A DNA stretch of 24,694 nucleotides from Candidatus Sigynarchaeum calidifontis (GTDB taxonomy: Archaea > Asgardarchaeota > Lokiarchaeia > Sigyniarchaeales > Sigyniarchaeaceae), in the NCBI GenBank assembly GCA_030587475.2, contig JAUQYZ020000058.1:1-24694 (forward strand), given 5' to 3'. The notes beneath the pieces were generated by a model that had not been told where the DNA came from, searched no databases, and saw only the letters and a program-made list of their open reading frames with translations. The translations under genes and the position numbers were made by a program. Each line of letters starts with the position of its first letter. Position 1 is the stretch's first letter. This document shows, in pieces, positions 14,509 through 22,845 of the stretch.

Positions 14509-14613
14509 GGTTATCGATCGGTACTAGAAGGTATTGGCGTATTATTTGGTGGTGCTCCACAGAATTTGTGAAATGATAAATAAGGTTGAATTGAGACATC
14601 TATCTTGATCCCG

Positions 14614-16410
14614 ATGTTCAAGCTCCACGCGTACTTCGTCTTCCATCTGAGCCAACGCTGCATGTTATTCTACGGGCAGATCGAGCCAAAGGACGTGGCC
14701 GAGGAAACGTTCACGAACCTTTTCGTGGAAGCTGAAAAACTGCTCATCGGGCAATCAAAACTCGTCACGATGGACAACTCGCAATTCGTGCTCTTGAATC
14801 AAGAAGACATCATCTCTTGCGCGCTCGTTTCGGACGTGTCCAAGCAAGACGAGAAAAGCGCGATCAACCTCCTCACCAAGCTCGGAAAGGCGTTCAAGCG
14901 CCAGTATCAAGCCGAGATCGACGAGTTCGACCCGAACTCTTGCGACCTGGGTGCTACCTTCGGGGGATTTTCCAGCATCCTCGCCACTGCCCTTAAAGAT
15001 TTTCTCGCGCCGAAGGATAACACCTCAGGAGAAGAACAGAAGGAGATACCGGGAAACCAAGGCAGTACAGCACCAAAACCAGCTGCGGGAGAGGAAGGCA
15101 AGGGCATCAGGTTTCCGGGCGGGAAGATCTCGCCCGAGGAGCGCGACGAGATCCTGTTCCACGAGTACGAGGACTTGATGGCACTATACAACGTGGAGAT
15201 GGTGGACGGCATCGTCTCGAAAAACAAGATCTTCATCTACGCGAACATCGGGGAGTACCACGAGATCACGGTCGACTATTCCGACTTCCCCGCAGTGCCG
15301 AAGATCACGATGCCTGCCAAGCTCTCCGATGTGTTGGCGATCACGCAGACCGTGCAAGGCTGGAACCCCGAGAACCCCCCGCGCATCGTCGACGTGATCG
15401 CCGAGATCGAGCAGATCGTTTGCAGCATGCACCCCGCAGGCCCCACGCAGGCCGATAGAGCTGCCGAGATCGACGGGTATATGGACGAACTCGGTTTTGA
15501 AGGATCGGGAGAAAAGGCCACCAACGGGCTATCTCAAGGCGAGAAAACGTCGGCATCGAACGTGCTCGCCAGCCGATTGCTCGCAAAAGACAAGAACGTT
15601 GCAAAAAATGGAGAAAAGGATTCGAATGTACCTAATTTCAGCCAGCCATCGACAATCGTTGACCAGATCATTGATGAAAGCCAACAATTAGGACACAAAA
15701 CCTCATTGAAGGACATGGTAGCCAAGCAGAAAGCGGGTGAAACCTCTCCCCAACAAGTGGCAAGCGAACCCTCTCCATCTCTCGCTGCGGTGCCAACCCC
15801 TACTCCGTCACGTGAGCAAAAACCCCAAAAATTCGTCATCCGGCCGCGGTTCGTCGTCGACGGGGAGGAAATCACCCCCGGCAAGAAGGAGCCAGAACCG
15901 GAGCCGTCGAAGCCCGCCCCGCGGAAAGAGAGCGTCCCGCCGCCGAAGATCGGCATCATCGACGAGGGCATCACGATCACGCCGCGACCGAGGCCCGCGA
16001 GCATGGCACAAGGGGAGCAAGAATTGATGGCCAAGCCAGTCGCTACCCTGCAAAAAATTGACGAGGTCGACCATGACATTGATATCACCGCCAGGCCGCG
16101 CCCTGCAAGCCAAATAAAGAACTTTGCCATACCAGACGTGAACGAACTCGATAGCTTCGTGCCCCCCGCGCCCATGAAGCGCCCCGCGATCAAGCCCGCA
16201 CCGGCACAAAAACAAGCACCCCCGTCGCCCGTTAAGCCCGCCCAAAAGCCAGCACCGGCGGCCACGGCCAAATCCAAGCCCGCACCGAAGCGGATAGATG
16301 ATGAGGAGGACATGTTCGGTTGGGGTGATGGGGAAATGGAGGTGAAGCAGTCGAACGTGGAGATAAAAGACTTCGATGGCCCCATCAAGAAGATCACAAA
16401 CGGCGAGTAG
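14614..16410 (+). CDS. Multidomain protein: longin-like N-terminus, UEV/RWD-like middle domain, Pro-rich disordered C-terminus
   Basis: N-terminal beta-beta-alpha-beta-beta-beta-alpha pattern ending LLTKLGKAFKRQY; middle ITVDYSDFPAVPKI...W.PENPPRIVDVIAEIE; P/A/K-rich tail. Domain calls are by eye. Confidence 0.6.
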   Translation: MFKLHAYFVFHLSQRCMLFYGQIEPKDVAEETFTNLFVEAEKLLIGQSKLVTMDNSQFVLLNQEDIISCALVSDVSKQDEKSAINLLTKLGKAFKRQYQAEIDEFDPNSCDLGATFGGFSSILATALKDFLAPKDNTSGEEQKEIPGNQGSTAPKPAAGEEGKGIRFPGGKISPEERDEILFHEYEDLMALYNVEMVDGIVSKNKIFIYANIGEYHEITVDYSDFPAVPKITMPAKLSDVLAITQTVQGWNPENPPRIVDVIAEIEQIVCSMHPAGPTQADRAAEIDGYMDELGFEGSGEKATNGLSQGEKTSASNVLASRLLAKDKNVAKNGEKDSNVPNFSQPSTIVDQIIDESQQLGHKTSLKDMVAKQKAGETSPQQVASEPSPSLAAVPTPTPSREQKPQKFVIRPRFVVDGEEITPGKKEPEPEPSKPAPRKESVPPPKIGIIDEGITITPRPRPASMAQGEQELMAKPVATLQKIDEVDHDIDITARPRPASQIKNFAIPDVNELDSFVPPAPMKRPAIKPAPAQKQAPPSPVKPAQKPAPAATAKSKPAPKRIDDEEDMFGWGDGEMEVKQSNVEIKDFDGPIKKITNGE

Positions 16411-21561: not shown

Positions 21562-21800
21562 GTCGTTCACGCGGACGGGCGTGCAATTTGCCCGCTGCTT
21601 TTACTCTCCGCGTTGAGCGATTTAAATGGTTCCGCCAGGCATCTTCATGGATCATCGTTGCCCCTTCAGAACTTGCGGTAAGGAGGCCACGGTCGGTAAA
21701 TCACCAGAATTTGGCATACATCCCCGCAAAACGTTTTTTACCACGATCGCCACCAAGGGTTATCATGATACTCATATCCGGTTATGACGACATCCAAGGA

Positions 21801-22460
21801 ATGGATAGGATCGTCATCGTCGCATCCTTTTTTGCCTTGGCAATTGGCGGGATCATCGTCTCGGTGCTTGTCTTGTTGAAGCGGAGGAAAACCGATGTCA
21901 AAGCATCGAGGTTTTATTTGCTCGGCATCGCGATGTTTGCCATGCTCTTCGGTCTCGGCCGGCTCGTCTTTTTATACCACGACTATTTCGCACCAGACCC
22001 GCTCGATGCCCCGGTCTACTTGGTAGGTGAAATCCTCACGTTGAGTGCCTTGATCATCCTTGTCTTCTCGATCGAGAAATTCATCTTCACCAGGACCAGG
22101 AAACTCATCACGATCATCGGCTTGATCTGTCTCGTGCTGGTTATCGTGTTCACGCCGCTAGAAGCAGAACCGAGACGGATATCCGCGCTAGCCTATGTCG
22201 CGGGGAATGGCGTGTTGACCATACTCCCGTTCTTCATCTACATCTACATCGCCAAGATCTCCACGGGCTCGGTTCGGAAGCAAGCGCTCTTCATCATCCT
22301 CGGGATCGTCATGCTCGCCATCAGTATCATCGGGGGAAAATATTTGTACGACTTTCACATTCTCAATCGGCTCTGGTCGCAGCTCTTCGGCATCATCTTC
22401 AGCTTTATCGGGTTTATCTTGCTCTCTTACGGGCTGGTGAAGAATCCAGCGACGAAATAA
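21801..22460 (+). CDS. 7-transmembrane-helix protein of unknown function
   Basis: Seven hydrophobic segments with basic loops (KRRK, RTRK, VRKQ). Start is 21765 or 21801. Confidence 0.75.
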   Translation: MDRIVIVASFFALAIGGIIVSVLVLLKRRKTDVKASRFYLLGIAMFAMLFGLGRLVFLYHDYFAPDPLDAPVYLVGEILTLSALIILVFSIEKFIFTRTRKLITIIGLICLVLVIVFTPLEAEPRRISALAYVAGNGVLTILPFFIYIYIAKISTGSVRKQALFIILGIVMLAISIIGGKYLYDFHILNRLWSQLFGIIFSFIGFILLSYGLVKNPATK

Positions 22461-22576: not shown

Positions 22577-22678
22577 GACGGCTGCTTGTTTTACCCTACA
22601 TTACCCGAAACGGATTGCTGGATTCACGAGGGCTTGCCGTCCTCTAAGGATCCCAACGCATTCGTTCCCGTAATTGGT

Positions 22679-22845
22679 CCCGACGTAGTTTAGTGGCTAG
22701 AACGCCCGGCTGTAGTCATGTGACGCACGAGGGAGAAATATAACAATGATCTCGTGTCAGCCAACATCCAAAAACCGGGATGTCGCCGGTCCGAGAAGAA
22801 ATCTGTCAAAAAATGGATTTCTCGGAAATCCGGCCGTCGGGACCA
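22679..22845 (+). tRNA. tRNA-Tyr(GTA) with two introns: 37/38 (22716-22773, 58 nt) and 59/60 (22796-22828, 33 nt); CCA encoded
   Basis: Acceptor CCCGACG/CGTCGGG (C1-G72, A73 archaeal Tyr identity), D-stem GTTT/GAAC, anticodon stem CCCGG/CCGGG with GTA at 22712-22714, T-stem GCCGG/CCGGC. The second intron has a strict BHB (TCCG/CGGA; bulges AG^A and AA^T; inner helix AGAAATC/GATTTCT). Confidence 0.93.
22716..22773 (+). ncRNA. Candidate intron-encoded H/ACA-like guide RNA targeting U35 of pre-tRNA-Tyr
   Basis: 8-bp upper stem GCACGAGG/TCTCGTGT capped by a GA...AATGA K-loop. Flanking GAC and CAGCC pair with the precursor on both sides of U35-A36. Hand-folded only. Confidence 0.65.

Follow-up and report, generated by a model that had tools for sequence, protein, structure and literature searches.

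A putative self-guiding intron for pseudouridine 35 in the tRNA-Tyr precursor of an Asgard archaeon

Introduction

An ACA box and a lower stem are the usual anchor for Cbf5 on archaeal H/ACA guide RNAs. Guides without either element are active in vivo in S. islandicus, where one of them uses a single 6-bp 3' duplex (PMC11077068), and around a typical UN pocket the ACA is dispensable and pairing on the 3' side is the most important (PMC7075261). Productive archaeal guides hold ten layers between the pocket and the K-turn (bioRxiv 10.1101/016246). Pseudouridine 35 (Psi35) in the pre-tRNA-Tyr of Sulfolobus is set by H/ACA guidance (PMC2651775, PMC11077068). Among tRNA introns, the one in pre-tRNA-Trp is itself a guide, a case which a 2014 review regarded as the unique example (sR50; PMC4090602, PMC7994747).

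We analysed a 24,694-nt stretch of DNA (the window; contig JAUQYZ020000058.1, positions 1 to 24,694) from Candidatus Sigynarchaeum calidifontis, an Asgard archaeon of the class Lokiarchaeia. A preliminary description of this DNA had read the first intron of its tRNA-Tyr gene as an H/ACA guide for Psi35 of its own precursor, and knew of no earlier account of such a guide. Conservation, covariation and fixed spacing strongly uphold a pocket in which the intron presents U35 of the precursor that contains it; they do not uphold the classic H/ACA features, a lower stem and an ANA box. At a probability of roughly 0.75, we read the intron as an atypical H/ACA-type guide that lacks an ACA and introduces Psi35 into the precursor containing it, before splicing and most likely in cis. 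The literature searched, which largely excludes subscription journals, describes Psi35 guides that are separate RNAs, as well as introns of C/D type; an H/ACA guide for pseudouridylation encoded in an intron was not found there.

The tRNA-Tyr gene and its surroundings

Read from the sequence, positions 22679-22845 of the window form a tRNA-Tyr(GUA) gene with two introns, a C1:G72 pair, A73 and an encoded CCA (Table 1). The gene was not called by ARAGORN or Rfam, and Rfam returned no guide family at the locus. Nearby genes include L15e and RNase P p30; Pfam gave no match for the open reading frames at 21588-22460 (+, 290 aa) and 14605-16410 (+, 601 aa).

Table 1 Features of the tRNA-Tyr gene and of the guide module in its first intron (window coordinates).
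Feature	Position	Strand	Basis
5' exon, tRNA positions 1-37	22679..22715	+	Sequence; C1:G72 and A73; orthologues by covariance model
U35-A36, unpaired pair beneath the upper stem, with U35 as predicted target	22713..22714	+	MFE fold; flanking pairs conserved
Intron 1 at 37/38, 58 nt, with guide module	22716..22773	+	Boundaries set by anticodon-stem pairing and orthologues
5' guide arm: G37 and intron bases 1-2 (22715-17) with 22722-24, 4-nt loop	22715..22724	+	Watson-Crick conservation in Lokiarchaeia
Upper stem (22725-32:22750-57) and K-loop	22725..22757	+	Stem pairs with compensatory changes
K-loop parts: GA 22733-34; closing G-C pair 22735:22744; bulge 22745-47; GA 22748-49		+	Sequence
3' guide arm CAGCC, paired to exon G30-G34 (22708-12)	22758..22762	+	Positions 31-34 paired in relatives
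Intron 1 tail: weak splice helix and 22764-67	22763..22773	+	Sequence; energies
Middle exon, positions 38-59, C at position 55	22774..22795	+	Sequence; identical in same-genus genome
Intron 2 at 59/60, 33 nt, strict bulge-helix-bulge, outside the guide	22796..22828	+	Fold; presence varies among relatives
3' exon, positions 60-76, encoded CCA, then T-rich run	22829..22845	+	Sequence

Positions 54-56 of tRNAs are normally near-invariant. The spliced T-loop of this gene (22790-22795 joined to 22829) has a C at position 55, and Lokiarchaeia tRNA-Tyr genes read AUC (20), CUC (19), UUC (18), UCC (3) or UGC (3) across positions 54-56. Extra introns in the D-arm, variable region and T-loop come and go between close Lokiarchaeia relatives, and the 37/38 guide intron is always retained.

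RNA data comprise a single 171-nt contig at depth 3 from one metatranscriptome, which spans 22630-22795 with intron 1 retained and is too little to address expression or splicing. The match stops precisely where the 5' splice site of intron 2 is predicted, and five unmatched letters follow; this contig could be a precursor that has lost intron 2 alone, or could reflect a strain difference.

Elsewhere in the source genome, contigs C82 (46-1816) and C212 (11601-17648) carry dense arrays of 11 and 19 tRNA genes with atypical sequences, within which sits a second tRNA-Tyr(GUA), this one intronless. These arrays are probably a mobile element or binning contamination. A selenocysteine tRNA (UCA) was called on contig C88 (23669-23761, minus strand).

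A pocket around U35-A36

The minimum free energy (MFE) fold of the whole precursor contains an 8-bp upper stem, a 5-bp arm on G30-G34 and a 3-bp 5' arm, with U35-A36 left free. The upper stem, K-loop, CAGCC arm, GAC arm and unpaired U35-A36 noted in the preliminary description are all found at the positions in Table 1. Several hallmarks of H/ACA sRNAs are present in intron 1: a K-loop with GA/GA and a 3-nt bulge, ten layers from pocket to K-turn (8 bp plus two G.A pairs), and a two-part guide whose 5 bp and 3 bp flank the free target dinucleotide.

None of 100,000 dinucleotide shuffles of intron 1 reproduced the features as observed; a relaxed version was satisfied by 4 of them and a loose version without the 5' arm by 355. 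When the 5-Mb genome was scanned for the combination of stem, K-turn and CAGCC arm, the tRNA-Tyr locus was the sole match, and a generic scan for self-pockets returned it along with one other locus, the latter outside a tRNA-like context. We do not count folding energy as evidence, because it supports the 5' arm weakly among orthologues and favours the 3' arm in only about half of them (in Lokiarchaeia, 52% have a probability above 0.5).

Conservation and covariation in Lokiarchaeia

BLAST with the tRNA-Tyr locus gave a same-genus genome as its single match, and short exon patterns yielded largely chance matches. A covariance model succeeded instead, with matches in 139 of 150 genomes of the class; it included intron columns from four genes with the module, which may bias it towards genes of this kind, but tRNA-Tyr genes with plain introns were retrieved too. 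Among the best 70 loci, which were read individually, 69 are tRNA-Tyr with a module-type intron and one is another tRNA. The module is kept in all 54 distinct Lokiarchaeia introns parsed, a count that, like those below, overstates independence because the compared genomes are related to each other.

The distance from the K-turn GA to the 3' arm is 8 nt in 54/54 Lokiarchaeia introns and 8 or 9 nt elsewhere; together with GA, 8 nt amounts to the ten layers of productive archaeal guides. An unanchored search placed GA exactly 10 nt ahead of the arm in 51/54 introns, compared with a mean of 4.05 and a maximum of 9 in shuffles; with anchoring, all 54 fit the spacing, the three misses being wrong picks by the script. 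GA is invariant on the bulge strand (54/54) and the opposite strand has GA or AA in most introns. Non-standard K-turns are frequent, with AA replacing GA on the 5' strand or one added purine. Upper-stem pairs 1-5 are preserved in 52-54 of the 54 introns, compensatory changes included.

On the 3' side of the pocket, exon positions 31-34 are paired to the arm in 53-54 of 54 introns, and all four genes with A31 have a U in the arm. On the 5' side, G37 faces C in 51/53 and intron base 1 is Watson-Crick paired in 49/53, as against 9-23/53 in slid controls; the base 1 pair covaries, with A-U, U-A, C-G and G-C all seen. The 5' arm is Watson-Crick in 59/69 cases (permutation mean 35, maximum 47). Pairs switch within several genera or families, including C-G versus U-A in one genus and U-A versus G-C in the family of the source genome. 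Across the 54 introns, K-loop, stem and both arms are thus conserved at a fixed spacing, with covariation in stem and arms.

Lower stem and ANA box

Two further proposed elements did not hold up. The complementarity of ACATCC and GGATGT, proposed as a lower stem, is in the sequence, but 6/6 pairs form in the source genome only; the same-genus genome lacks the full set. The two strands are both 3' of the pocket, unlike the topology of an H/ACA lower stem, and a 5' strand for a pocket-closing stem of 7-9 bp is absent. The A-run proposed as an ANA box does place AAA at 14 nt, but it is not conserved: ANA occurs at 14 nt in 6/54 Lokiarchaeia introns, and at each distance of 13-16 nt in only 4-6/54, which leaves the module without a conserved ACA/ANA box at 14-16 nt. 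An alternative pairing of ACAT with ATGT (22764-67:22718-21) is possible, and more likely forms the intron-side helix of a relaxed bulge-helix-bulge splice motif.

Because neither lower stem nor ANA box is conserved, we regard the intron as a probable atypical, ACA-less guide and not as a classic H/ACA RNA. Its K-turn-bearing upper stem and 3' guide without lower stem or ACA are those of the atypical H/ACA-like class. The short 5' arm, at 2-3 bp, counts against a guide, as do the lack of the conserved Cbf5 anchor, the frequent non-standard K-turns, the weak Gar1 match and the Asgard introns that pair around U35-A36 and have no K-turn. The atypical-guide reading is favoured because the ten-layer spacing is present, ACA-less guides work, 3' pairing dominates, and Cbf5, Nop10 and L7Ae are encoded.

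Distribution among archaea

Beyond Lokiarchaeia, other Asgard families of Heimdall and Hermod type also have the module, in some cases with a distance of 9 nt. One Asgard family has intronless or short-intron tRNA-Tyr genes and no module, and in several others the introns pair with exon 22-34 and have no K-turn. Four of these K-turn-less introns contain a long hairpin that begins at G37 or beside it, then a short spacer and a long antisense to exon 22-34. As judged by eye, they likewise leave U35-A36 free, in an internal loop, and their design is possibly a related module for TruD.

A pattern scan of 185,579 genomes, in which only the exon and GA-8-CAG were fixed, found at least 120 loci and gives breadth, not frequency. 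Among the matches listed, the stem and partner GA are present at 88 of 110 tRNA loci versus 0 of 10 chance loci. The matches listed are mostly from Woesearchaeota, Pacearchaeota and other Nanoarchaeia, and also include Thermofilales and a variant of the module in Ignicoccus pacificus; in the listed introns of Nanoarchaeia type the 5' arm is absent in many and the stem begins two bases past G37 in 50/88. Two single-contig genomes, of 4,324,194 and 6,035,313 bases, carry the module. Numerous records named 'uncultured Methanosarcinales' may carry the wrong label, since their tRNA-Tyr is of Nanoarchaeia type.

Of 50 Thermoprotei genes sampled, about 15 have, as judged by eye, a module-like intron, some with degenerate kinks; in 18 genomes, of about 2-3 Mb, the introns are short and plain and lack the module. 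We take these 18 genomes to be Sulfolobaceae. Because Psi35 has a guide RNA of its own in that group, the intron module and the separate guide look like complementary solutions.

Cbf5 and TruD

The proteins that atypical guides require of their host are encoded in the source genome, with Cbf5, Nop10 and L7Ae above the cut-off and Gar1 a weak match below it. Cbf5 has its catalytic motif and a PUA-like C-terminus. No separate guide for the tRNA-Tyr site was found in the source genome.

The preliminary description had suggested checking whether Pus7/TruD is missing or degenerate; TruD is present, intact and open in the source genome, with the motif IIIa lysine and with D-N-Q in place of D-R-H in motif II. 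Because it is intact, a stand-alone enzyme is possible: the intron would open the anticodon stem-loop and show U35-A36 to TruD (aPus7), in parallel to the intron requirement of eukaryotic Pus7, with the K-turn hairpin as an L7Ae-bound stabiliser. TruD is found in 29/30 Asgard genomes and, among the matches listed, in 32/40 pattern-selected genomes; most module carriers have it. The K-turn-less Asgard introns described above, with the same two bases in an internal loop, would also fit a role for TruD, and aPus7 favours UA and in P. abyssi can make Psi35 alone (PMC2651775). However, the P. abyssi enzyme works without an intron (PMC2651775), and a K-turn held at a fixed distance of ten layers has no reason under a stand-alone enzyme. 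The D-N-Q motif argues in the same direction, as does the residue after the motif II Asp, which is basic in 7/15 module carriers versus 9/9 non-carriers, a trend only; a motif II change alone lowers TruD activity just partly. Several carriers, in incomplete genomes, have Cbf5 and no TruD match. Weighing these points, we consider presentation to TruD unlikely.

The TruD of Ignicoccus pacificus appears to lack both the basic residue of motif IIIa and the R-H pair of motif II, like the Sulfolobales enzymes.

Competition with the splice fold

Guide and splice folds are mutually exclusive, because G37 is paired in the guide fold yet must sit in the cleaved bulge of the bulge-helix-bulge for splicing (PMC4090602). 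Their energies in the source genome are -17.6 and -14.7 kcal/mol, respectively. The splice helix of the source genome (22768-71 with C32-U35) has only two Watson-Crick pairs and is among the weakest in the set; C32 pairs with G at -3 in 51/54 relatives, and the source genome has C.A. The exclusive folds, their energies and the weak helix would all suit a non-catalytic splicing timer or folding switch, in which L7Ae holds or releases the splice-competent fold or shields the excised intron. Such a switch leaves the free U35-A36 and the fixed spacing unexplained. It also does not explain why the module was seen in tRNA-Tyr only: by eye, other intron-bearing tRNAs retrieved have no module, and the genome scan gave no second tRNA case. 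We judge the switch improbable.

Intron tails bear on the relation between the two folds. The splice helix lies apart, at the 3' end, in 68 introns with long tails (54 of them with A at -4), and 55 of the 68 nevertheless keep CAGC or CAGU after the stem. Guide and splice pairing overlap in 85 introns with 8-nt tails, of which 74 have C or U at -4, a base that can pair with G30 when the guide fold forms but is mismatched to U33 when the splice fold does. These patterns indicate that the 3' arm is distinct from the splicing helix.

The unspliced precursor as the predicted target

Where intron base 1 is not A, the 5' arm fits base 1 in 15/20 introns and A38 in 1/20. Because the 5' arm follows intron base 1 and not A38, the predicted target is the unspliced precursor. 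The preliminary description had allowed for action in cis or by the excised intron in trans. Guidance of mature tRNA by the excised intron is disfavoured, because the 5' arm fits neither A38 nor position 39.

Cbf5 chemistry could also proceed in trans between precursors, with one precursor or excised intron guiding another unspliced precursor as the tRNA-Trp C/D intron does. For that intron, a cis action was the original proposal and action in trans was demonstrated afterwards (PMC7994747; PMC4090602), and in the source genome G37 and the first nine intron bases are self-complementary, which makes intermolecular pairing possible. The self-complementarity is lost in the same-genus genome, however, and across the set pairing drops after three pairs (63, 59, 46, 22 and 12 of 69), as a hairpin requires. 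An arm of 5-6 bp without lower stem or ACA would moreover be a weak trans guide, and guidance between molecules appears very unlikely. Half of a box C/D methylation guide is scarcely credible: the bulge strand looks like box C (RUGA), and the introns of tRNA-Trp and of N. equitans tRNA-Met are known to contain C/D guides, but there is a single kink, CUGA is not conserved, boxes C, D, C' and D' are not in place, the bases ahead of the 5' GA are locked in the 8-bp stem, the 9-10 nt antisense before a D box is absent, and Rfam gave no C/D match at the locus.

Proposed mechanism and significance

We hypothesize that in a new precursor the 3' arm invades the anticodon stem at G30-G34, and that the 5' arm pairs with G37 and would thereby block the 37/38 splice site. 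L7Ae would bind the K-loop, and Cbf5-Nop10, perhaps with Gar1, would dock ten stacked layers beneath it, where the free U of the UN pocket is U35, and convert U35 to Psi35. The RNA would then refold into the anticodon stem and the weak splice helix and be spliced, so that modification would precede splicing.

If this is true, intron 1 would be the first tRNA intron known to guide the pseudouridylation of its own tRNA, the self-guiding introns in the literature found being box C/D. It would give a function to a tRNA intron that has been retained for long in the lineage nearest to eukaryotes, in which Psi35 depends on the intron, and would constitute a natural modify-then-splice switch. The locus also offers a minimal one-molecule substrate for Cbf5 action without an ACA box. 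Standard recombinant archaeal proteins would suffice to test these predictions, and a variant of the module is present in a named isolate, Ignicoccus pacificus. A broader scenario, which we offer tentatively, is that the cis guide in the tRNA-Tyr intron may be an old archaeal route to Psi35, common to Asgard, Nanoarchaeia and part of Thermoprotei and replaced by a separate sRNA in Sulfolobales; it might gate splicing until the anticodon is modified, and might be the historical reason why eukaryotic Psi35 needs an intron.

Comparison with known systems

The Psi35 sRNAs of Sulfolobales and Aeropyrum (Sso1, Sac1, Sto1, Mse2, Ape7 and sR115; PMC2651775, PMC11077068) share with the guide proposed for the tRNA-Tyr intron both their target and an exon-intron pairing specific to the precursor. 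Unlike it, they are classic hairpins that have a lower stem plus an ACA at 14 nt, are encoded elsewhere and act in trans. Eukaryotic Psi35 formation by Pus7 concerns the same base and likewise needs a 37/38 intron, but Pus7 is a protein-only enzyme and the eukaryotic intron has no known guide (PMC2651775).

A similar logic is seen in the C/D intron of pre-tRNA-Trp (sR50; PMC4090602, PMC7994747). Like it, the tRNA-Tyr intron would be a self-guide of L7Ae type for the anticodon arm, and in both the guide and splice folds compete. The Trp intron differs in directing 2'-O-methylation by fibrillarin, in having two boxes and in its demonstrated action in trans. Similar in architecture are the atypical guides sR109, sR136, sR148 and sR563 of S. 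islandicus and those of Pyrobaculum (PMC11077068; bioRxiv 10.1101/016246), which, like the tRNA-Tyr intron, carry a K-turn some ten layers above their UN pocket, lack both lower stem and ACA, and use a short or one-sided duplex. Those guides are separate RNAs that act on rRNA in trans, whereas the tRNA-Tyr module lies inside its substrate and is spliced out; being an intron of its own target is a new feature relative to the atypical H/ACA-like guides.
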